Positions 2,107-22,661 of a DNA stretch of 26,452 bases are shown in pieces. The position numbers were made by a program, and so were the translations under genes. The DNA comes from a virus (taxonomy: Duplodnaviria > Caudoviricetes), in the IMG/VR virus record IMGVR_UViG_3300042196_000135, positions 1-26,452 of that record; one strand, written 5' to 3'. Below the pieces are notes generated by a model. That model did not search any database. It saw nothing but the letters and a program-made list of their open reading frames with translations, and was not told where the DNA came from. Positions within the stretch are counted from its first letter, which is position 1. Every line of letters begins with the position of its first letter.

Positions 2107-2457
2107 TCATAACCACCGCACCAACTGCCCAGAAAACGGCAACCCGTGAGTGTCCTTAAAAAACTGAATAAACGCCGCCGCAGAATCAAAGCCATCCGCT
2201 TTGGCAAACGCCGCCAGCTCATCAGCAGGCAATAGACGATTACCCACCATCACCCCCGTGCGATCAATAAACACCTCATCCACCGACTCACAGCGCGTGT
2301 GCCGCAACCGCCGGCAACCAGGCTGGCGCATACCGGTAAACAAATAAAGCTCATCACCAGGCTTGAAAGGCCGCGCACGCTTCGCACGAATGGTCTGCTT
2401 TTTATCGCCGCACTCCACCTTATAGGCAAATTCACGTTTGAAGTTTATGGCTGGCAT
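2107..2457 (-). CDS. ASCH/PUA-like domain protein
   Basis: INFKREF..KVECGDKKQTIR...KPGDELYLFTGMR and FAKADGF motifs. Confidence 0.8.
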   Translation of the reverse strand: MPAINFKREFAYKVECGDKKQTIRAKRARPFKPGDELYLFTGMRQPGCRRLRHTRCESVDEVFIDRTGVMVGNRLLPADELAAFAKADGFDSAAAFIQFFKDTHGLPFSGQLVRWL

Positions 2458-3188
2458 GCTGGAAAATCCTTATATTCAAAATCACCAATCAGACAACCGC
2501 CTTTTGCAAGCCCGGTGCCGCCCCATTGCTTAAAGAAAAATGCAACCTCCCATATTTGCGCCAGCAGCCGTAGTCGAGAAACCCAATCAACAGCCATTTG
2601 CCGCGCATCATTGCCCGATTCACCGCCACAAATAATCCAGTCAATACCCGTTAAATCAAGCCGCGAGCTCACATCTTCCAACAACGGCTCACATGACAAA
2701 AACCGGATAACAGCAGGCACGCTGCGCAAAATATCCACGCGCGGCACACCGCGCTTAACATCCTCAACAGTCACCCCCAGCCACACATTGTGGAAACCAT
2801 CGCCCCAGTCATCAGGCAAAAACCGCTTTATATTCGGCGCGCGCTTAGTCAGCAGCAACCAATCCATATCCGGGGTTTCGCGTATCACCTGCCACAACCG
2901 TTCGCGCTGGCCTGCCGGTGCATCATTGCTGAACACATCGCACATAGACCCGCAAAAAACCCGCAAGCGCCGGCCTTCACGCACCGCCTGCCGCTGCAAC
3001 TTGTGCGGCAGCTTCCAGTTATTGTCAGACATCGCGCGCGGCTTTGTGCCAGCACCCCAGTGATGACCACCAAACCGGTGATCTAGCGTTTCCGCATAAC
3101 AATGATCACAGCCAGGCGAAACCTTAGTGCAACCCCACCAGGGGTTAAATGTGGCATCACACCAGCTGATGTTTGTGGTTTCAGCCAT
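2445..3188 (-). CDS. Phage Gp37/Gp68 family (DUF5131) radical-SAM-like protein
   Basis: ISWCDATFNPWWGCTKVSPGCDHCYAE, LLTKR, FLSCEPLL, WIICGGESG and FFFKQWGG motifs. Confidence 0.92.
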   Translation of the reverse strand: MAETTNISWCDATFNPWWGCTKVSPGCDHCYAETLDHRFGGHHWGAGTKPRAMSDNNWKLPHKLQRQAVREGRRLRVFCGSMCDVFSNDAPAGQRERLWQVIRETPDMDWLLLTKRAPNIKRFLPDDWGDGFHNVWLGVTVEDVKRGVPRVDILRSVPAVIRFLSCEPLLEDVSSRLDLTGIDWIICGGESGNDARQMAVDWVSRLRLLAQIWEVAFFFKQWGGTGLAKGGCLIGDFEYKDFPACQP

Positions 3189-5597: not shown

Positions 5598-5828
5598 TCA
5601 TGCGGCAGCCTCGCGTTCATCATATATATCAGGGCGCAGATCGCTTTCACGAATACCAGTTATGCGCACCACAATGGGCAAACGCTCTGCTGGCACTTGT
5701 TTGCGCCATTGATTTATCGCCTGCGACGTTACACCACACGCAGTCGCCAATTTGCGCTGGTTGCCACCAATATCGCACCAGCTATTAAATGACTGACTAG
5801 CGCTGTTTTTTATGGATTTGTTTGACAT
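5598..5828 (-). CDS. cro: Cro-like (YdaS-type) HTH regulator
   Basis: GGNQRKLATACGVTSQAINQW...VPAER...LRPDIY; divergent from cI. Confidence 0.88.
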   Translation of the reverse strand: MSNKSIKNSASQSFNSWCDIGGNQRKLATACGVTSQAINQWRKQVPAERLPIVVRITGIRESDLRPDIYDEREAAA

Positions 5829-5834
5829 GGGCGG

Positions 5835-5919
5835 AGTAAAGCATGGCTTGACCACAGTTGTCAAGCAACACTTGATTGTTTTTTCCCATGGCATAACCGA
5901 ACATCAAGCAATGCTTGAT
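5835..5919. promoter_or_regulatory. OR-like operators and pR-like promoter
   Basis: 17-bp palindromic operators GTAAAGCATGGCTTGAC (5836-5852), GTCAAGCAACACTTGAT (5860-5876) and ATCAAGCAATGCTTGAT (5903-5919). Minus-strand TTGACA (5864-5859), 18 bp, TTTACT (5840-5835). Confidence 0.85.
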
Positions 5920-6285
5920 ACTATCGGACAGCGAATAAAACACATCATCGACAACTCACCACTGACACAATCAGATATTGCGGCCCAATGCGGCGTCACC
6001 AAACAAGCAATCACAGGCTGGACAAACAAAAGCGCTATCACGAAACAGAATCTCAGCAAATTCTGCAAAATAACCCACACCAACATGCAATGGGTATTAG
6101 AAAAAAAAGGCGCTATGATGATAGAGACAGCTCATCACCAGATAGAGGAGCCAGTCGCACCGTACAACATGGATGATGTAAAATTACTAGACAGAATAAA
6201 CAAACTTAGCCATGCTGATCGCGTGCGACTGGCAGCCATCATTGACGCGCTTAATAGCACGGTGGACAAATCCACCGGCAGCTAA
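5911..6285 (+). CDS. cI: CI-like XRE repressor, short form
   Basis: TIGQRIK...LTQSDIAAQCGVTKQAITGW HTH; no recognisable S24 peptidase domain. Confidence 0.85.
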   Translation: MLDTIGQRIKHIIDNSPLTQSDIAAQCGVTKQAITGWTNKSAITKQNLSKFCKITHTNMQWVLEKKGAMMIETAHHQIEEPVAPYNMDDVKLLDRINKLSHADRVRLAAIIDALNSTVDKSTGS

Positions 6286-6804: not shown

Positions 6805-7173
6805 ATGCAAACAGCCACCACACACCCCCTATTCACCAAATACCCCCGCCACCCCGTGCCCGGGGCAGTCGAATCAGAAATCCACTGGATCATGCCCGGT
6901 AAGCCTACCTACCTGGCACCCGGCGTGGTCATGGGCATTGAATACGATGATGACAACACCGCCACATTCAAAATATGGGTTGACGGCAAACGCATCAAAA
7001 ACCTGCAAACCAACAGCCGCCGCCAGCTGGATCTGCGCACCAGCCTGGGCCTGATCGTCACCCACATTAGCAACAAACACAACACCATCACCGGCTACGC
7101 AGAAAAAAGCCTGATCGAAATCGCCCCCGTGCCACTGCACCTGATAGGCGCTGAACTGGGTGGCCAGCAATGA
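6805..7173 (+). CDS. Hypothetical protein, first gene of the pL operon
   Basis: GGAG RBS; immediately after the promoter. Confidence 0.75.
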   Translation: MQTATTHPLFTKYPRHPVPGAVESEIHWIMPGKPTYLAPGVVMGIEYDDDNTATFKIWVDGKRIKNLQTNSRRQLDLRTSLGLIVTHISNKHNTITGYAEKSLIEIAPVPLHLIGAELGGQQ

Positions 7174-7388
7174 GTGGCCTGTCGTCATCCAAATTTTTAG
7201 CACTCAGCGCATACAAACCACCCAAAAAACCGCGCGGCAAGGCAGGCACCAAACTGGCCAAAACCGCCATCAAACACCGCTGCAGCATTCACGGCAAACA
7301 AAACACCACCAGCAGCGTGCACCTGTGGCACCTGCAAGTGCAAACCAACAACAACCTGCAACGCATCAAAGCACGGATGGCAGCATGA
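7170..7388 (+). CDS. Small basic hypothetical protein
   Basis: ATGA coupling at both ends; Lys/Arg-rich. An N-like antiterminator role is possible but unsupported. Confidence 0.6.
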   Translation: MSGLSSSKFLALSAYKPPKKPRGKAGTKLAKTAIKHRCSIHGKQNTTSSVHLWHLQVQTNNNLQRIKARMAA

Positions 7389-7753
7389 GCCAATTACTAG
7401 ACCCCCGCGATGATCCAGACTACAAAAACAAAACCCGCGCAGAGCTGTACACACAGCTGGTGGCTGCACAAGAAGAAGCTGACGACTTCCGCGCTGACAG
7501 CCATAATGAAATACGCGGGCGCCAACGTGCAGAGGACAAACTTAAAGACACGGAATCAGAAAACGCCGTGCTACAGAAAAAACTGCATGATCTGCGCATC
7601 GCCATCGAAACCGCCATGGCCATGCGCTTTCCAGATGCACCACACGTCACCAAAGCATTTGGCTACGTTATGAGCACCAGCACGGAATATACAAAAACAG
7701 AAACAAGCGAAGAATTAAACCTGCTGCAACACCTGCACAGGCTTGCAACGTAA
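7385..7753 (+). CDS. Coiled-coil hypothetical protein
   Basis: ATGA-coupled start MSQLLD; heptad-like segment. Confidence 0.7.
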   Translation: MSQLLDPRDDPDYKNKTRAELYTQLVAAQEEADDFRADSHNEIRGRQRAEDKLKDTESENAVLQKKLHDLRIAIETAMAMRFPDAPHVTKAFGYVMSTSTEYTKTETSEELNLLQHLHRLAT

Positions 7754-7924
7754 TGAGTCTTACACGCAACAGCGCACCTGCATTCGCCAATGTTGCGCGC
7801 AACGGGTGGCAAGCATTCCCGTTTAAGTGCAGGAGGGGCCGCGCCAGCGACATGCCAGCGAACCCCCATGGAAAACTCCTGACCATGGCACAGACTGGCA
7901 AACCCAACAACCGAGGGCAATGAT

Positions 7925-8146
7925 ATGGACCTGTATCTATTTATATTAATTGCAATCATCTACCTGGGCGCCGGCATCTACCCCAGCAGCCACATGCACG
8001 ACAACAGCCGCCTGTATTACAGCCTGACAGAAAACAGCTTCATATTCACATGGCTGCTATGGATCAGCTGGCTGCCCGTGTTTGTAGTCTATATGTACAA
8101 CCAATCGCTGAAAACAAAACCAGAAGGCGACGAACATGGATACTAA
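7925..8146 (+). CDS. Small membrane protein
   Basis: Two hydrophobic segments; GAGG RBS. Confidence 0.65.
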   Translation: MDLYLFILIAIIYLGAGIYPSSHMHDNSRLYYSLTENSFIFTWLLWISWLPVFVVYMYNQSLKTKPEGDEHGY

Positions 8147-8339
8147 CGAAATCAGTTATTGCCTGGCGAAGCAAATCTCAACAATGCACGCGATCGCCAC
8201 GAACTACGGTTATATTGAGCTTGATGAAGCAATGCAAGAAGCCGTAGAAAATGCGCTGCGTCCACTCTTAGAGAAGAGGCTGGAAGAACAATCAAGAATA
8301 GTGCAGGAAATAAACGAATGGGAGCAGTATGAAACATAA
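8136..8339 (+). CDS. Hypothetical protein
   Basis: Overlaps the upstream gene and ends just before the cassette array. Confidence 0.65.
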   Translation: MDTNEISYCLAKQISTMHAIATNYGYIELDEAMQEAVENALRPLLEKRLEEQSRIVQEINEWEQYET

Positions 8340-8374
8340 TCTAATATTGCAATAACCTCCGCTTTAGCACAGGC

Positions 8375-8459
8375 AGATAACGTTTAAGTTAATTTGCGGC
8401 GCGATGCTGCATGACAGTGGCGGACTGGTTAACCGTCAAAATTGAACGCCATGTTATGT
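8375..8459 (-). other. attC site 1 (85 bp)
   Basis: Minus strand ACATAAC-atggc-GTTCAATT...AATTAAC-ttaaac-GTTATCT. Confidence 0.85.
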
Positions 8460-8479
8460 GCATGGTGGGAGTATATAAA

Positions 8480-8653
8480 ATGGCAATAATTGAATTGAAT
8501 GTAAAACGGTTTTTGGTGTGCAGCACTGGCGAGGACGTTGATTTTCCAGAACCAGAGGACAGTCTTGAAGCCGCTATTGCGATGCGCGACAAAAACAACG
8601 AAGACGAAGATAATGACGAGGGATGGGATATTGTGGCAGAAGTAGACGCATAA
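8480..8653 (+). CDS. Cassette ORF: small acidic hypothetical protein
   Basis: GGAG RBS; stop lies within the GCATAAC box. Confidence 0.7.
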   Translation: MAIIELNVKRFLVCSTGEDVDFPEPEDSLEAAIAMRDKNNEDEDNDEGWDIVAEVDA

Positions 8654-8697
8654 CGATAAAGTTGAAGACAACGAACTAGCGGAGTGACTTGTTAGGT
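8648..8697 (-). other. attC site 2, short and degenerate (50 bp)
   Basis: R boxes are intact (plus strand GCATAAC and GTTAGGT) but the L boxes pair poorly. Polarity is assumed from neighbouring sites. Confidence 0.6.
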
Positions 8698-8719
8698 GCT
8701 CTAAATACGGAGAACGGAC

Positions 8720-8956
8720 ATGACACCAGAACAGATGGCGAAGGATGCGGCGCTGGCGATACAAGGCGGAACGAGAATGACGCTGGTTTTACCGAGGCCG
8801 TGGCGAAATAGGCCACTGAAGTTTCCGCGTGGAGAATTGCTGTGCGAAAACTCCAACGGCTGCAATGTTTACAGTTTCGACCCGCTTCGAGTGCTGGCAT
8901 GGCTCGCCGCTAACGGATTGGTGAAAGTGGAAACAAAGGTAGCACCTAACGATTAA
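8720..8956 (+). CDS. Cassette ORF: hypothetical protein
   Basis: GGAG RBS; flanked by GTTAGGTGCT and AGCACCTAAC. Confidence 0.75.
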   Translation: MTPEQMAKDAALAIQGGTRMTLVLPRPWRNRPLKFPRGELLCENSNGCNVYSFDPLRVLAWLAANGLVKVETKVAPND

Positions 8957-9004
8957 GTTAAAGCGCCGCGCTTTTCGCGGTCGATTTTGAACGCCTTGTT
9001 AGGC
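8944..9004 (-). other. attC site 3 (61 bp)
   Basis: Minus strand GCCTAAC-aaggc-GTTCAAAA-tcgaccgcgaaaagcgcggcg-CTTTAAC-ttaatc-GTTAGGT. Confidence 0.92.
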
Positions 9005-9017
9005 GCGGTGGTGAAAA

Positions 9018-9311
9018 ATGTACGAATGCACATGCCCTTATTGTGGCAAAACAATGGATGACCCGGATGATTGCTATGAACCGGATGTAACTTATGAGTA
9101 TGAATGCCCCAACTGTGAGAAAAACTTTGTATTTACAATCGACTATATCCGAACCTACAGCGAGAAAAAAGCCGACTGTCTCAATGGTGCAGAGCATGAA
9201 TATAAGCCAACCATAACTTACCCGAAGCAATGCACAAAAATGCGGTGCGAACACTGTGATGATGTGCGGGCATGCACAGAACAGGAGCTGGCGCAGGTAT
9301 TGAGCGCCTAA
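9018..9311 (+). CDS. Cassette ORF: multi-CxxC zinc-ribbon protein
   Basis: CPYC, CPNC and CEHC motifs; flanked by GTTAGGCGC and GCGCCTAAC. Confidence 0.8.
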   Translation: MYECTCPYCGKTMDDPDDCYEPDVTYEYECPNCEKNFVFTIDYIRTYSEKKADCLNGAEHEYKPTITYPKQCTKMRCEHCDDVRACTEQELAQVLSA

Positions 9312-9365
9312 CGACCAGCATCAGGCGCGGCGCTTTTTGCCGTCGCCTGAATGTGCTGGTTAGGT
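9306..9365 (-). other. attC site 4 (60 bp)
   Basis: Minus strand ACCTAAC-cagcacATTCAGGCgacggc-aaaaagc-gccgcGCCTGATgctggtc-GTTAGGC. Confidence 0.88.
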
Positions 9366-9377
9366 TGCGGAGGAATT

Positions 9378-9658
9378 ATGAAAGAGAAGAAATTACTCGA
9401 AGAACTGAAATCCTGCGTTGATGACTGGGGTGATAATTTTGATATTGATCTTGTGCAAGAGGACTACTGGAAAGGCAATACCTATTTATCAGTAATCATC
9501 ACCCACAAGTCGCTTGGCCATGATTACGAATTTAGAGCGCGTGTCAGTGACGAAGGTACTGTGAAATGGACTACAACGAGGATAGCTGGACACCGATAAA
9601 TATGGGAAATTTGTTTGCATGGATGTGGTTTGATACTGCGCCGAAAAGAGCAACCTAA
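9378..9658 (+). pseudogene. Cassette ORF with an apparent 1-bp deletion near 9560
   Basis: The first frame stops at 9599. The shifted frame reads [31 protein letters not shown] and stops inside the ACCTAAC box. The span is 281 nt. Confidence 0.65.
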
Positions 9659-9775
9659 CGCCCAAGGTAAGCCGCCCGCCGCCAACGAACCGAACAAGGG
9701 AAACGAATGCTAGACACAGAACAGAACGAAAACGAAGCCGCTTGCGGCGGGTCGGCCTTGACCGCCGTGTTAGGG
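9653..9775 (-). other. attC site 5 (123 bp)
   Basis: Minus strand CCCTAAC-acggc-GGTCAAGG-ccgacccgccgc...gcggcgggcg-GCTTACC-ttgggc-GTTAGGT. Confidence 0.88.
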
Positions 9776-10276
9776 GTGGGATCCACGCGGATGCACCCGC
9801 ACGAAAACAAGTTTCACGCGGGCAACAGAGAAGACGGGAAGCACTACTGGCTGACGCCACCCGAGCTTTACACGGAACTGAACGCTGAATTTAATTTTGA
9901 CTTTGACCCCTGCCCTTACCCGAAGCCAGACGACTTCGACGGGCTGACGTGCGAGTGGGGGCAGCGGAACTATGTGAACCCCCCTTTCGGATCCATCGTG
10001 CACCAGGGGAAGAAGAAGGGGCCGACTGCGTGGATGCGCAAGGCCATCGAGGAACAGCGGAAGGGGAAGCTGTCGGTTGTGGTGTACCCAGTGGACAAGT
10101 GGGTTCTGATGATGATGGCCGCGATAGGGGCGCAGAACATCCGAAACCTCGGCGATGTGAAGTGGTGCGCCACAGAGGACGGATCCAAGGGCAAGGGCAC
10201 TGGCCGGCACATCGCGTGCTTCGTGCTGACCCCTAACGCAAAGCTAACCGGCGGGCCGTCAGGCCCGTCCGGTTGA
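9707..10276 (+). CDS. Cassette ORF: phage-type DNA N6-adenine methyltransferase (Dam-like)
   Basis: WLTPPELY..LNAEFNFDFDPCP, DGLTCEW and YVNPPF motifs. Alternative start 9791. Confidence 0.85.
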   Translation: MLDTEQNENEAACGGSALTAVLGVGSTRMHPHENKFHAGNREDGKHYWLTPPELYTELNAEFNFDFDPCPYPKPDDFDGLTCEWGQRNYVNPPFGSIVHQGKKKGPTAWMRKAIEEQRKGKLSVVVYPVDKWVLMMMAAIGAQNIRNLGDVKWCATEDGSKGKGTGRHIACFVLTPNAKLTGGPSGPSG

Positions 10277-10290
10277 GCGACAGGTTATAA
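10231..10290 (-). other. attC site 6 (60 bp)
   Basis: Minus strand TTATAAC-ctgtc-GCTCAACC-ggacgggcctgacggcccgcc-GGTTAGC-tttgc-GTTAGGG. Confidence 0.92.
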
Positions 10291-10293
10291 CGC

Positions 10294-10572
10294 ATGTTGC
10301 TGGCACTGGACTACGACGAAACGTACACCGAAGACCCGGAGTTCTGGGACTTGGTGATTGGGCTTGCTGTGACACGCGGCCATTCGGTTATTTGCGCCAC
10401 GATGCGGCACGAGCACGAAGGAGAGGACATTGTTTCTGCTCTCGGCCATAAGGTTGAGCGGATAATTTTCACCGGCAGGAAAGCCAAGCATCAGTTTGTG
10501 CAAGAGGCCGGATATTACCCGTCTGTGTGGATTGACGATTCGCCACATTGGCTATTTCGGGATGCGTTATAA
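10294..10572 (+). CDS. Cassette ORF: minimal HAD-superfamily phosphatase-like protein
   Basis: ALDYDET, CATMR, K and WIDDSP motifs. Flanked by the perfect 12-bp pair GTTATAACGCAT and ATGCGTTATAAC. Confidence 0.8.
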   Translation: MLLALDYDETYTEDPEFWDLVIGLAVTRGHSVICATMRHEHEGEDIVSALGHKVERIIFTGRKAKHQFVQEAGYYPSVWIDDSPHWLFRDAL

Positions 10573-10584
10573 CTAATATTAGAA
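10567..10584. other. attI-like core, interrupted by the inverted cassette
   Basis: TTATAAC-TAAT-ATTAGAA: two opposed core boxes with no attC body between them, at the intI-proximal end of the array. Confidence 0.55.
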
Positions 10585-10836
10585 CCCTGCAAACTCTGGC
10601 ATGCGCTCGAACTGGTCGCGGGTCAGCCACACCGATGTTATGGCGTACTCATAGCGTTCATCGCCCAGCAGATCGTGCGCCTCGTGACACTCCATCACGC
10701 AGGCCGTGCCGTCGTATTCAACCCTGGCAAATTCTTCGGTCACATAGTCCTCACAAGCTGGCGCGTGGGTGCTTGGCGGGTATTTTCCGCCCATCGTTTC
10801 GCGCAAGTCTCGGCACATCGTCTGGCAGTTACACAT
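10579..10836 (-). CDS. Inverted cassette ORF: hypothetical protein
   Basis: Minus strand GTTAGAACCC-GGAG-ccagct-ATG ... GGGTTCTAAT. Confidence 0.78.
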   Translation of the reverse strand: MCNCQTMCRDLRETMGGKYPPSTHAPACEDYVTEEFARVEYDGTACVMECHEAHDLLGDERYEYAITSVWLTRDQFERMPEFAGF

Positions 10837-10849
10837 AGCTGGCTCCGGG

Positions 10850-10910
10850 TTCTAACACGGCGTTCAAAATCGACCGCGAAAAGCGCGGCGCTTTAACTTA
10901 ATCATTATAC
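10850..10910 (+). other. attC site 7 (61 bp), opposite polarity, with R' = ATTATAC
   Basis: TTCTAAC-acggc-GTTCAAAA...CTTTAAC-ttaatc-ATTATAC; internal 47 bp match site 3 at 46 positions. Confidence 0.88.
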
Positions 10911-10944
10911 GACAAATAACGATTAACACGAGAAGAGACAGCGA

Positions 10945-11922
10945 ATGAACAAACACAAATCGCCTTTCTTAAATGAACTTCGACATCACATGCACGCGCG
11001 TAATTACAGCGAAGCCACGATAAAATCCTATGTCAGCTGGGCGTTGAAATATATTGTGTTCAACCACAAAAAACACCCGCGCGACATGGGCCGTGAACAG
11101 GTGGAACAATACCTGGCACACCTTGCTACTGCTCGCTATTGCTCTGTGGCCACACAAAAGCAGGCGCTCAATGCGCTGGCGTATTTGTACAATCGGTTTT
11201 TAATAAAACCACTTGGCACGCTCACCATCAAAAAAGCGCGCAAACCAAAACGCCTGCCCACCGTGCTATCGGTTAGCGAAGTCAACGCCCTGCTGGAAAA
11301 CCTCACCGGCGTTTACCTTACCTGCGCGCTGCTCATGTATGGCGGTGGCCTTCGCCTGATGGAATGCCTGCGCCTGCGCATAAAAGATATAGATTTTGAA
11401 CGCAAACAAATCACCGTGCGCGGTGGCAAAGGTGACAAAGACCGCACCACCATGCTGCCCCTGTCTGCCATCAAACCCCTGCAGCGCCAACTGGCACTGG
11501 CAGGCAAATACCACCAGCAGGATCTGGCCAACAACAAAGCCAACGTGTGGCTACCGAATGCACTGGCGCGCAAATACCCAAACGCACCTGCACAATGGGG
11601 CTGGCAATGGCTGTTCCCCGCCAGCGGTTATTGCAGTGACAAATACACTGGCGAAATCCGCCGCCACCACATACACCCAAAATCACTGCAACGTGCCATC
11701 AAACACGCCGTGCACGCTGCCCATATAAACAAACCCGCCAGCGCACACACCTTGCGCCACAGCTTCGCCACGCACCTGCTGGAAACCGGCGTCAACATTC
11801 GCGTAATACAAGACCTGCTCGGCCATCAAAACATCAACACCACCATGATCTACACCCATGTGATGACCCACGGCACCACCGGCCTGCAAAGCCCCGCAGA
11901 TTTGCGCATGGCACAGCAATGA
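10945..11922 (+). CDS. intI: Integron integrase
   Basis: Tyrosine recombinase residues in [29 protein letters not shown] and TTMIYTH. Also carries the IntI-specific insertion [18 protein letters not shown]...TGEIRRHH. Confidence 0.96.
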
Positions 11923-12152
11923 CCACCCAATGCAAACTAGACCGCTGCCAGGAGCGCTTCACACCAAAGCGCCCAGGCCATAAATTCTGCTGTGATGCCC
12001 ACAGGGCAGAATACCGCCGCGACCACCAGCCCGGCACAGGCACCATCAAAGCCCTGCGCCAGTTGAAAACCACCGGCTGGTCAGTCACAATCCACTTTGA
12101 CACCCAGCCAGCTGTCAGCGTGGGCGCAAAAATACAACTGAGCCGCGATTAA
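11919..12152 (+). CDS. Small Cys/His-containing protein (possible directionality factor)
   Basis: [20 protein letters not shown]; ATGA-coupled to intI and upstream of the serine integrase. Function is inference. Confidence 0.65.
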
Positions 12153-12158
12153 TCGCGG
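12143..12158. repeat. Perfect 16-bp palindrome (possible terminator or binding site)
   Basis: CCGCGATTAATCGCGG followed by TTTAT. Confidence 0.5.
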
Positions 12159-12219
12159 TTTATGGGGTTTAATATGGCAAATGATACCAACATAAGCGAT
12201 CAGCCAGAAAAGCTGTGCG

Positions 12220-12327
12220 TGTTTTTAGGTATGGTAGTGGCGGAATTGGTAGACGCATTAGTGGAGCTGATAGCCCTATGTAAAGACGGCGTGCAGGTTC
12301 GAACCCTGCCTACCATACCTAAAAACA
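12220..12327 (+). ncRNA. tRNA-Leu-like structure lacking a canonical anticodon arm, with an 18-bp acceptor stem
   Basis: D arm TGGCGGAATTGGTAGACGCA; variable arm GCC..GGC; T arm GCAGGTTCGAACCCTGC; flanking perfect 18-bp inverted repeat. Confidence 0.75.
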
Positions 12328-12334
12328 TACTGAC

Positions 12335-13951
12335 ATGACCCCAGCCACCTATCTACGATACAGCACCGACAAACAACGCGAAGCCAGCTGCGAAGATCAG
12401 CTGCGCAATGTGCAAGAATTTTGCAGCCGCAACACCTGGCCGATGCCAGTAATCTATAAAGACGAGGCCACCAGTGGTGCCACGCTCAATCGCGCCGGGC
12501 TCGATGCCATGATCACCGCTGCGGATCGCAAAGAATTTGATGTGTTGATTGTTGATGATCAGAGCCGCCTTGGCCGCAACTACGAAATTCCGCTGATCAT
12601 CGAGCGCATGAAATTTTTTGATATACGCGTGATCTGCATTAACAACGGAATCGACACCAGCCGTGATGGCTATGACCTGCTCGTGTGCATGAATAACATG
12701 ATGGACGTCAAAACTATCAAAGACCTCGCCCAGCGCACCCACCGCGGCCTCACCGGCCAGGTGCTAAAAGGCAAAAGCGCGGGCGGCAAAAGCTACGGCT
12801 ACAGCAGCCAGGCGATCGACGACGGATACATAAAAACAATCGTGCCCGAGCAGGCCGAAATTGTGCTGCGCATTTTTACCGATTACGCCAGCGGCCACAG
12901 CCTGCGCCAGATCGCCAACCAGCTCAATGCCGATGGCATCCAAAGCCCAGGCGGAAAACGCTGGCGCACCAGCACGCTCTATGCAGACCCGCTGCGCGGC
13001 ACCGGCCTGCTGTGCAACCCGCTATATAACGGACAATACGTTTGGAACCGGGGCGAATGGCGCAAACACCCCGACACAGGCAAACCCTGCCAACGCCAGC
13101 GCCCACAATCGCAGTGGCACACTATCGATGCCCCGCAGCTGCGCATCATACCGCCAGATCTATGGCAGCGCGTGCAAACCCGCATCGCCACCACCCGCAA
13201 ACACACCCGGGTGCAAATCAGCGCTGGCAAACACCACGGTGGTAGATCGGCGCAGCACATCCTGTCTGGTCTGCTCAAATGCCAGTGCGGCGCGAGCTAT
13301 ATCATCATCAACCGCAACCGCTACGGCTGCGGCGCCAGGCGCGCCAACGGCCACGGCGTGTGCAGCAATGCACTCACCGTCGATCGCACACTGGCAGAGC
13401 AAAAAATTCTAGCTGGCATCAAAACCCAGCTGGCCACCGAGGCCAACTACAAAAAATTTGAAGCCCGAGTGCGCGCCCTGCTCAAACAACGCGAGCCGAA
13501 CACAACAGCCCTGCAGCGCCAGCTCACCGCCGCGACCACAAAGCGCGACAACATCATCAAAGCCATAGAGGCAGGCATATTCACCCCCAGCACCCACGCC
13601 GCCCTACAGGCCGCAGAACACAGCATAGAGCACAGCCAGGCCGCGATCGACCAGGCGCACAAAAACCAGCCCGCCGCCATCCTGCCACGCGCACGCGACA
13701 TCTACAAACAACTGATCGCCCAGCTGGAAAACGCCACAGACAAAAACACGGTGAGAATAGCAGTACAGGAATTAATTGGGGAGATAGAGCTGCAGCCAAG
13801 CCAGTGCAAAACGCACCTGGTGGCCAAAATTACCGGCCATGCCGCTATGGCCGGTAGGTTATCAATGGTAGCGGGGGCAGGATTTGTGTGTTTACCTACC
13901 GATTGGCTTATTCCGCTGACCGGTGCGGATTGTGGCACAAAGAGCGGGTGA
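12335..13951 (+). CDS. int: Large serine recombinase (phage integrase)
   Basis: YLRYSTDKQ catalytic motif, DQSRLGRN, recombinase domain (NPLYNG), zinc ribbon LSGLLKCQCG and a coiled coil. Confidence 0.95.
   Translation: MTPATYLRYSTDKQREASCEDQLRNVQEFCSRNTWPMPVIYKDEATSGATLNRAGLDAMITAADRKEFDVLIVDDQSRLGRNYEIPLIIERMKFFDIRVICINNGIDTSRDGYDLLVCMNNMMDVKTIKDLAQRTHRGLTGQVLKGKSAGGKSYGYSSQAIDDGYIKTIVPEQAEIVLRIFTDYASGHSLRQIANQLNADGIQSPGGKRWRTSTLYADPLRGTGLLCNPLYNGQYVWNRGEWRKHPDTGKPCQRQRPQSQWHTIDAPQLRIIPPDLWQRVQTRIATTRKHTRVQISAGKHHGGRSAQHILSGLLKCQCGASYIIINRNRYGCGARRANGHGVCSNALTVDRTLAEQKILAGIKTQLATEANYKKFEARVRALLKQREPNTTALQRQLTAATTKRDNIIKAIEAGIFTPSTHAALQAAEHSIEHSQAAIDQAHKNQPAAILPRARDIYKQLIAQLENATDKNTVRIAVQELIGEIELQPSQCKTHLVAKITGHAAMAGRLSMVAGAGFVCLPTDWLIPLTGADCGTKSG
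13866..13886 (-). other. Putative attP core matching the 3' end of an initiator tRNA-Met
   Basis: Minus strand CAAATCCTGCCCCCGCTACCA: half T-loop, acceptor strand and CCA. The rest of the tRNA is absent. Confidence 0.78.
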
Positions 13952-22500: not shown

Positions 22501-22661
22501 ACCACGGATGACAGATATATATTGCCGCCATAGGTGATATTGTAAGGCGCTGTGGTGTAATACAGCGGCGTGCTGAAATCCATGCGCACCAGGTGGTAAA
22601 ACTCTACATTATCTGCGCCCAGTTCTGTAATGGCACCGGCTGATAGTCCTCGGTTGGCCAT
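19512..22661 (-). CDS. Tail tip / host-specificity protein (gpJ-like) with FNIII-like domains
   Basis: LPVVYG, LRGICY and NPALVLYDYLT motifs; FNIII-like repeats (LKWTQV..DLAGYDIRY, IKAVDTSGNYS). Confidence 0.88.
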   Translation of the reverse strand: MANRGLSAGAITELGADNVEFYHLVRMDFSTPLYYTTAPYNITYGGNIYLSSVVLMDVPDVVESLDIKPGTISIGLSGATAAVHALLLSESKNVDVYIYRYLIGVAEAVVLFYGFTDKYNCKEDTRGRNSTVNLTISNHWSNWEASSGRTLSDASQQNRYSGDLGMEYLTITDFFAPYWGGEYLDPERIVAPGAYYGTGTFIIGAGAWAAYVDQLRKKTPNTIQLPVVYGQSAISGKPVFRTVTNGTRDMWVVYALAEGECDSLVDILFDSVSYTNAKYVGYISVTFHGGTTTQTVDTALDAASLLWTSAHRLRGICYVVIKYVYNTAVWSGEPAPLFILKGKKLHDPRTAGTAWGTNPALVLYDYLTSTVYGKGLSSAELDAFNAGADYAETIKVDHDGGLGGTPVNINLFDFNGIIETAGSVKSNAEKILFTMRAHLPWVSGKYTLVIERDDDTSNYSFDDTNITGAFEYGEAGIKDLANVVHYSFVDAAIGYIDAEVIADSASYLSADGNRELRADESNNYESNRYRAQNRAATILKKSRQQISVKLQAANADALQVQTGEVVDITRTTTGWSGKLFRVVNTTLLLEGGINFELDEYEASVYDWAVSAETDPPANTKLLDPLDVTAPTSLVLESGTNALILNGDGTIVSRIKATFTASADAFVLGYNVYIKKPTDATKLFYARIQDPATTEIYISPVEDGISYTVYIKAFNSLGVESAALSDSATVIGKTAVPANVTGFIAAQNGEVVVLKWTQVTDADLAGYDIRYGKRGASSYADATPLTSVTRGTNVTSADIPPGNWTIYIKAVDTSGNYSTTAAQASLVVTTALDVIYQLEQSPDWLGSRVNFVKHWTGVLYPESTSTISALGMRVFDECSPDPEPSCSYEAPEIDIDFDDGVRVWAEIDSYLCPGETAGVADPGLQIDYRLVADSYDGFEPWSIGNIDMRYIKQKLVLDTTKGNAAIRGFKPTVDLLEYTINAKDVAISISGETIVYAEQFHVAPFVRVFVKGTSGVYAVINNVTSTSFDVYLFNNAGAVAGTIDWEAEGV

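Follow-up and report, generated by a model that had tools for sequence, protein, structure and literature searches.

In canonical integrons (IntI1 with attI1; VchIntIA) the attC site is asymmetric: the bottom strand bears the extrahelical bases and recombines, and the cassette genes are normally readable from the platform promoter Pc (PMC5027507). Integrons have also been reported from phages. Qi et al. (2023) described 3 complete integrons, 1 In0 and 17 clusters of attC sites lacking an integrase (CALINs) in 10,705 phage genomes, and phage attC sites were shown to recombine; the complete ones comprise a chromosomal subset, mosaics of class 1 and an element of Shewanella type that has a LexA box and sense cassettes (PMC9892861). 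In a further arrangement, the inverted-integrase integron of the Spirochaetota type, the array lies downstream of intI, a solution also used by the viral loci L011, L013 and Rctr41k. Here we describe an element in a 26,452-nt virus record (Caudoviricetes, IMGVR_UViG_3300042196_000135), a phage from sediment; this whole stretch of DNA is called the window below. By its integrase, its attC sites and its attI the element is an integron. We consider it probable that it is a complete, phage-resident one, with an intact integrase, a compact attI and genes on the bottom attC strand, that it likely swaps accessory genes, and that these would be read from an early promoter at the far end of the array with no promoter in the platform.

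The locus resembles canonical integrons in the insertion and the catalytic residues of its IntI, in the R and L boxes and extrahelical base of its attC sites, in an array that diverges from intI by attC polarity, and in an attI beside intI. It differs from them in its bottom-strand genes, in an attI only ~46 nt from intI, in its phage-like cargo, and in that neither Pc nor a LexA box was found. With the phage integrons of Qi et al. it shares the presence of integron parts in a phage and a methyltransferase among the cargo (PMC9892861). As in the inverted-integrase type, all genes lie on one strand, but here the array is upstream of intI, attC polarity is normal, and it is inside the cassettes that the genes face backwards. 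Phage integrons as such are known from the literature; the reversed, phage-fitted form is new here. A literature search with most subscription journals outside its range returned no paper on reversed phage cassettes or on a phage-type attI. The running text of PMC9892861 contains neither "antisense" nor "opposite" and no array variation within a phage population; its figures may show polarity. By our own model, the CALIN of PH101 from that study (L199, NC_029094 75900-78000) is antisense, its annotated genes lying on the attC bottom strand, and TJE1 is sense. Two of the four PH101 sites are nearly symmetric in score. A previous interpretation of the window made from the letters alone (the sequence-only reading) had called such an integron little described, and this was right, though phage integrons had been published (PMC9892861).

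The integrase gene encodes 325 aa without a stop or frameshift in the window, and its product scores 416.9 bits against TIGR02249, where the cut-off is 265. Residues 6-318 align to VchIntIA (PDB 2A3V, E 6.6e-83) with the integron-specific insertion included, and the I2 insertion region aligns without large gaps, which bears out the sequence-only reading of an intact IntI carrying that insertion. The six residues listed for intI in Table 1 (R137 to Y303) are what we take to be the catalytic R-K-H-R-H-Y positions. The nearest IntI proteins are 81, 69, 69, 69 and 65% identical, beyond which, a fragment and a frameshifted copy of the window's own IntI aside, identity is at most 56%. These five relatives retain full alignable frames, one of them shortened by a contig end, and together with the window they form a clade with SH-aLRT support of 100 in a quick tree. 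When their DNA context was sought, a single-protein scan of viral contigs returned only XerC-like matches (27-47%), a clade pattern search returned 0 viral contigs, and the one match of a metagenome scan (L086) was rejected as chance, lying inside an unrelated gene; the five clade proteins therefore come without genomic context. Among the best 80 of 548 bacterial loci, from 57 of 64 parts scanned, no IntI was more than 52% identical to that of the window, and in the viral scan, where 79 loci were kept from 96 matches, none exceeded 51%. IntI-like matches at E 1e-40 occur in 9 of 50,697 GenBank phage records. No LexA box was found at intI with the single motif searched, CTGT-N8-ACAG, whose only match in the window is at 22550.

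For the attC sites we used a covariance model (CM), distinct from that of IntegronFinder, trained on the bottom strands of 35 of 45 high-scoring sites, all from other loci and none from the window. The model is not fully independent because its training sites were chosen by our own box grammar and include an L017 site resembling attC3. It matches all seven sites that the sequence-only reading had named, five at 38-46 bits, the inverted one at 24.0 and the degenerate one at 20.4, with the two remaining matches in the window at 13.4 bits or less; only five of the seven are well formed, since 8648-8697 is degenerate and 10850-10910 is inverted. A scan with the box grammar finds four attC sites in the window, or five if a 5-nt spacer is allowed, and 0 in each of 100 dinucleotide shuffles. 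Unconstrained folding gave few sites and no polarity, and was superseded by the grammar and the CM. Cassette ends are complementary over 6, 10, 9, 10, 9 and 12 nt, among which the three R-box pairs quoted in the sequence-only reading are exact (10, 10 and 12 nt).

The array probably begins at 8148 and not, as first proposed, at 8375. Contigs of the sequencing runs X2 and X6 depart from the window sequence at 8148, and in X6 an attC-like arm comes next. The stretch 8155-8381, whose ends pair at 11 of 12 nt if one gap is allowed, and where X2 depth drops from 27.7 to ~1, is probably an eighth cassette that has lost its attC; it could instead be a native phage gene deleted in the variants. The ORF at 8136-8339 matches PHROG 27325 (E 8e-5). 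In the viral locus L188 (1-170), a homolog of this ORF likewise stands at the far end of an array and is followed by an apparent truncated attC arm.

The direction of the genes within this array is the reverse of that in bacterial integrons. The bottom strand of six window attC sites is the plus strand of the window, and the array points away from intI, as is usual; the cassette genes lie on that same plus strand, the recombining bottom strand of attC. The CM and the grammar agree on polarity at all well-formed window sites. Gene strand is set by homology for four of seven cassettes (3, 5, 6 and X, the inverted last cassette) and by ribosome site and stop position for cassettes 1, 2 and 4; for cassette 1, on which family searches gave no match, these two signals are the whole basis. 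PHROG matches fall on two window cassette genes and on none of seven opposite-strand ORFs. Two controls frame the result: the bottom strand of aadA7 (supplement of PMC9892861) has the same grammar as the window plus strand, and the Shewanella prophage M16-3 shows the canonical sense layout at 9 of 9 CM matches. The canonical layout, with genes on the attC top strand and readable from Pc, is not found in the window, and the suggestion that intI is merely co-oriented with a sense array is rejected by the attC polarity. With the genes reversed, a Pc in the platform would yield antisense RNA. Reversed polarity and the location of attI were absent from the sequence-only reading and are added here.

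The attI is compact, its unsplit crossover lying ~46 nt from the start of intI, and symmetric, a 6-bp core being flanked by inverted AA/TT halves. Its core motif is common to the first-cassette junctions of other viral integrons. Of 52 viral representatives, 20 have the pattern AAC-N4-ATT no more than 120 nt from intI, as does 1 of 67 bacterial ones, a count that tests compactness because bacterial attI lies farther from intI. An unbiased junction search found NAA 6 bp before the crossover at 13 of the 17 viral sites called with confidence and at none of the 8 bacterial sites (four of the latter have NAA at 7 bp); since the window attI aligns gaplessly to the attI of the bacterial locus L094, the register is not proven.

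The same polarity recurs in other viral arrays. Cassettes between neighbouring sites were called by their longest ORF after five duplicate loci had been dropped; such calls are noisy, three of five window cassettes being unclear, and were therefore backed by PHROG matches and homologs. In viral arrays upstream of intI, 30 cassettes are antisense, 7 sense and 15 unclear (n=52), whereas bacterial cassettes are 19 sense, 2 antisense and 4 unclear (n=25). Counted per IntI cluster, 13 viral clusters are antisense, 2 sense and 5 tied (n=20), and bacterial clusters are 1, 9 and 1 (n=11). Two viral arrays of Vibrio type are sense in 13 of 13 cassettes, and two downstream arrays in 4 of 4. Among 132 viral ORFs, those with PHROG matches are antisense in 14 cassettes, spread over 10 loci, and sense in 4; the latter all belong to one downstream and one Vibrio-type array, so that upstream arrays not of Vibrio type stand at 14:0. 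Pfam matches among 50 bacterial ORFs are 3 sense and 1 antisense, the latter an antitoxin. Thirteen viral loci were checked through 54 chosen ORFs: 5 have head or packaging genes, 7 have other phage-type genes, and 1 has none. The locus L017 independently repeats the plan of the window, with a repressor pair, an antirepressor, six antisense cassettes, a compact attI, intI and a phage integrase. A rule that all phage arrays are antisense was considered and is rejected by TJE1, Rctr41k, L011 and L013. A second phage layout, with sense cassettes downstream of intI, is seen in L011, L013 and L195 (KX853513, gene annotated xerD); L011 and L013 belong to a supported clade of 14 viral IntIs, most of them without detected attC. 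Two further observations concern single viral contigs: in L044 (3755-3814) an attC nearly identical to the aadA7 control lies downstream of IntI, and in L020 (8001-9424) there are two tandem integrase-like matches.

To judge from the sequence comparisons, the cargo looks to be drawn from phage genes. The product of cassette 6 matches Atlas clusters named HAD hydrolase that are 94-100% viral. Of its 21 homolog loci, two are 76-77% identical, none has attC on both sides, and one has a weak site 110 nt downstream. The frame of cassette 5 starts inside attC5 and stops inside attC6; Pfam Dam falls below its cut-off, and the DNA is 73% identical to an annotated phage N6-adenine methyltransferase. 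Cassette 3 has an 85% identical homolog in the viral locus L188, within the same R-box borders but with another attC and another neighbour, and two of its five homolog loci are attC arrays, both antisense. PHROG 2045 occurs in the window as an ordinary gene (2445-3188) and in the phage integrons of L008 (5266-6117) and L039 (5997-6716) as a cassette between attC sites.

The array varies between samples. Two forms coexist in run X2, one resembling the window at depth 5-6 and the other, with a different array and an unsplit attI, at depth 28-31. The deeper variant has the same flanks (one substitution in 7205-8148), departs from the window at 8148, and carries other cassettes, the flanks being joined to them exactly at crossover boxes. 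Of the 23 loose ends listed among 34, the R boxes and the attI junction account for 14, attC bodies for 6 and the methyltransferase gene for 3. Together with the complementary cassette ends and the L188 homolog of cassette 3, these ends indicate that cassettes move as whole units between R boxes. Some variant contigs may belong to other phages that share cassettes. Contigs of X2 and X5 at depth above 13 leave the methyltransferase cassette at 9889 with the same new letters in both, possibly an insertion at a secondary AAC site. Contigs of X1, the possible source run, cover 7000-8980 and 10874-13500 without differences, and the borders are bridged in other runs as well (X5 over 7958-8235, X2 over 8318-8951, X4 over 8971-9539 and X2 over 10904-12162). 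The proposal that the phage shuffles accessory genes by its own integron is supported by the position of the element inside the phage genome, by the phage-like cargo, by other cassettes on the same flanks and by breaks at crossover boxes. Set against the outcomes that would have told against that proposal, the bridged borders give no chimera, the attC sites have CM support, the arrays differ, and the window intI is intact.

Table 1. Features of the integron and of its phage surroundings in the window.
Feature	Position	Strand	Evidence or remark
Divergent Cro-like (minus) and CI-like (plus) repressor genes	5598..6285	- and +	upstream of the plus-strand row of early genes; PHROG 35, PHROG 4/8
Distal array border	8141..8161		crossover box ending 8147, then 7-nt remnant, attC probably deleted; contigs of X2, X6
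Probable eighth cassette, without attC	8155..8381		holds most of ORF 8136-8339 (plus)
attC1	8375..8459	top minus, bottom plus	CM 43.9 bits; 7/7 L-box pairs, extrahelical G
Cassette 1 gene, 57 aa	8480..8653	+, antisense to attC	GGGAG, ribosome-site-like; stop in R box
attC2, degenerate, 50 nt, L'' box lost	8648..8697	-	CM 20.4 bits; R boxes only
Cassette 2 gene, 78 aa	8720..8956	+, antisense to attC	GGAG upstream; no family or Atlas match
attC3	8944..9004	-	CM 41.3 bits
Cassette 3 gene, 97 aa, CxxC-rich protein	9018..9311	+, antisense to attC	L188 homolog
attC4	9306..9365	-	CM 41.6 bits
Cassette 4 gene, 73 aa	9378..9599	+, antisense to attC	GGAGG upstream; no family match
attC5, 123 nt	9653..9775	-	CM 45.9 bits
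Cassette 5 gene, DNA adenine methyltransferase-like	9707..10276	+, antisense to attC	PHROG 111, E 5e-17
attC6	10231..10290	-	CM 38.1 bits
Cassette 6 gene, 92 aa, phage HAD-like hydrolase	10294..10572	+, antisense to attC	PHROG 4256, E 2e-27
attI core: R box, 4-nt spacer, L box	10567..10584	-	displaced from intI by inverted cassette
Inverted cassette X gene, 85 aa, cysteine-containing	10579..10836	-, antisense to own attC	31 homologs, 49-89%
attC7, inverted, fused to outer part of attI	10850..10910	top strand plus	CM 24.0 bits, opposite strand
intI, intact integron integrase	10945..11922	+	TIGR02249; R137, K162, H268, R271, H294, Y303
tRNA gene, anticodon GAT	12231..12319	+	ARAGORN Ile(GAT), 89 nt; Rfam 40.5 bits
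Large phage serine integrase, 538 aa	12335..13951	+	PHROG 95, E 6e-75

The backbone of the window is, by its gene content, that of a tailed temperate phage. Among the 47 open reading frames (ORFs) scanned, PHROG matches mark CI-like, CII-like and Cro-like genes, O/P-like replication genes, tail genes and a large serine integrase. Genes for capsid, portal and terminase were not found among these ORFs, and the record is partial. The integron platform lies between the repressor-side early genes and the serine integrase. The sequence-only reading had placed it between genes of the pL operon and that integrase, of which the phage context stands and the pL promoter was not located. The phage integrase is the only serine recombinase among the 47 ORFs and no transposase or resolvase gene occurs among them, as had been noted before; nothing here indicates a transposon-borne integron. 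Read in reverse complement, 13866-13886 at the end of the integrase ORF gives the 3' end of a tRNA-Met(CAT), and this 21-mer was matched in all five bacterial genomes tried, all five returned loci being tRNA-Met genes. It is likely the attP core, judging by this identity, and the phage would integrate in a tRNA-Met gene; the match together with phage genes beyond 13886 suggests that the record is likely the excised form and the integron internal to the phage, ~2 kb from the likely attP. The tRNA between a 77-aa ORF and the serine integrase has an enlarged anticodon region and a long variable arm. GC skew over 8148-10573 is +0.14 and that of same-strand neighbouring genes is -0.12 to -0.20, a flip of sign. 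An Rfam search gave no match within the array, and PADLOC gave only weak matches.

We hypothesize that circular cassettes enter at attI when IntI recombines the bottom strand of their attC with attI in the ordinary way. With genes built into the cassettes in reverse, every newcomer would then share its coding strand with intI, the serine integrase and the early genes upstream. Given that a LexA box was not found and that there are 46 nt of promoter room, intI would share the expression of the early operon, when the phage infects or is induced; with no promoter above chance either, co-transcription from a phage early promoter is predicted to be the likeliest route. The cargo would come from a phage gene pool that phages without intI also use. 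The activity of IntI is presumed from its intact sequence, and host integrases may contribute.

The last cassette, X (10579-10904), is inverted as a whole, site and gene together, and sits in the left box of attI, its two junctions suggesting that attI was split. Run X2 confirmed the split: in a contig of depth 29.9 over 10904-12162, the core AAC-TAAT abuts 10904 and follows a first cassette other than X. At the left junction, an X2 contig at depth 6.2 covers 10569-10893 without differences, reaching only 10 nt left of the junction. The R' box of attC7 reads ATT where GTT is normal. The insertion point lies 6 nt from the R-box crossover, the spacing to be expected from the position at which Escudero et al. 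(2016; PMC4792948) mapped the top-strand cut in the L box of attI1. There, attI x attC crossovers occur in both R boxes, and L-box events are rare (1 of 607 clones) and would place attI downstream of the cassette. The closest comparisons are thus these L-box events, which share with the window the 6-nt distance and an attI left downstream of the cassette, and, grouped with them, attG secondary sites (bioRxiv 2022.09.11.507474); the window differs from the attI1 events of PMC4792948 in that an attC R box was apparently joined to an attI L box in nature. We propose that the symmetric attI core let the last cassette enter at the left box, inverted and probably silent, and that this would have moved the attI core 326 nt from intI. 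A homolog of cassette X (34% identity) is the first cassette of L017, in normal orientation; a scan of viral contigs for the cassette returned nothing. An origin by flipping of a normally placed first cassette was rejected, as the predicted junctions mismatch 10571-10587.

Several observations weigh against this account of a complete, working phage integron. The array is not covered end to end by any one contig, and none of the listed contig pieces bridges the step from cassette 5 to attC6. In the dominant X2 variant, intI is frameshifted by one extra base after 11455, which matches protein P0010, out of frame after residue 171; this fits the tendency, stated in PMC8946536, of active integrases without LexA control to be inactivated. 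The L188 record, 71% complete, shows no IntI and yet has cassette 3, so that exchange need not depend on the IntI of the window. Position 10904, at the inverted junction, is an A where a G is expected. Sigma-70 promoters in the window number 8 against 8.2 expected, which is chance level, with none near attI and with pL not located; a terminator scan of the window was likewise at chance level. Reversed polarity is not universal in phages, TJE1, Rctr41k, L011 and L013 being sense, and viral IntIs of the antisense layout are spread over several clades of a quick tree whose backbone lacks resolution.

Some of these points invite another explanation: a genuine array whose reshuffling is mainly the work of host integrases acting in trans, or of attC repeats recombining homologously, with the phage's own intI a fading passenger. 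Besides the frameshifted intI of the dominant variant and cassette 3 in a phage record without IntI, it would account for the decay of attC2 and of the distal site and for the close likeness of attC3 to attC7 (96% over 56 nt, 10852-10907; inverted repeat I1). We think it unlikely. The window intI is intact at all six catalytic positions, its five relatives at 65-81% keep full alignable frames, and variants swap the first cassette at attI and carry unlike attC sites behind the same R box, neither of which is expected from homologous recombination. Far less probable is the passive capture of a fragment of a host chromosomal integron, as published for Vibrio and Shewanella prophages (PMC9892861). 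The attC sites are of ordinary bacterial type and the GC skew of the array (+0.14) is unlike that of its flanks (-0.12 to -0.20), as such a capture might leave; yet the element lies within the phage genome, about 2 kb away from the likely attP, carries phage-like cargo in antisense orientation and has a compact attI; the CTGT-N8-ACAG LexA box was not found there, and the bacterial scan described above yielded no close IntI. We give hardly any credit to the idea that misassembly fused phage with integron DNA or mixed array variants that occur together: unitigs do break at the 45-nt repeat of attC3 and attC7, so that the order of mid-array cassettes is not independently fixed and the block 9005-10849 could be flipped or mixed, but both phage-integron borders are bridged in runs other than X1 (X5 and X2) and L017 has the same layout, which leaves only cassette order open.

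The favoured reading, a complete phage-resident integron, bears on how integrons are understood. They have been treated as bacterial devices, and PMC5027507 explains the strand rule of attC as keeping genes facing Pc. The phage platform keeps the strand rule and reverses the genes: site polarity and gene direction can be uncoupled. Whether this extends to a system that phages run for themselves, with several IntI lineages, a compact symmetric attI and a reversed-polarity pool of ordinary phage genes, is in our judgement an even question. In such a system cassettes would plug into one-directional early operons, would be shared with phages that have no integrase, and would be silent in bacterial integrons. 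The natural inverted insertion at a symmetric attI gives a handle on what keeps insertion at the R box. Cassette genesis is called largely unknown in PMC5371416; because close homologs of the cargo are plain, attC-free phage genes, arrays of this kind would show cassettes being made from known parents and make the question testable. For the phages themselves, the integron provides a programmable accessory locus, in which an orphan methyltransferase could counter host restriction.

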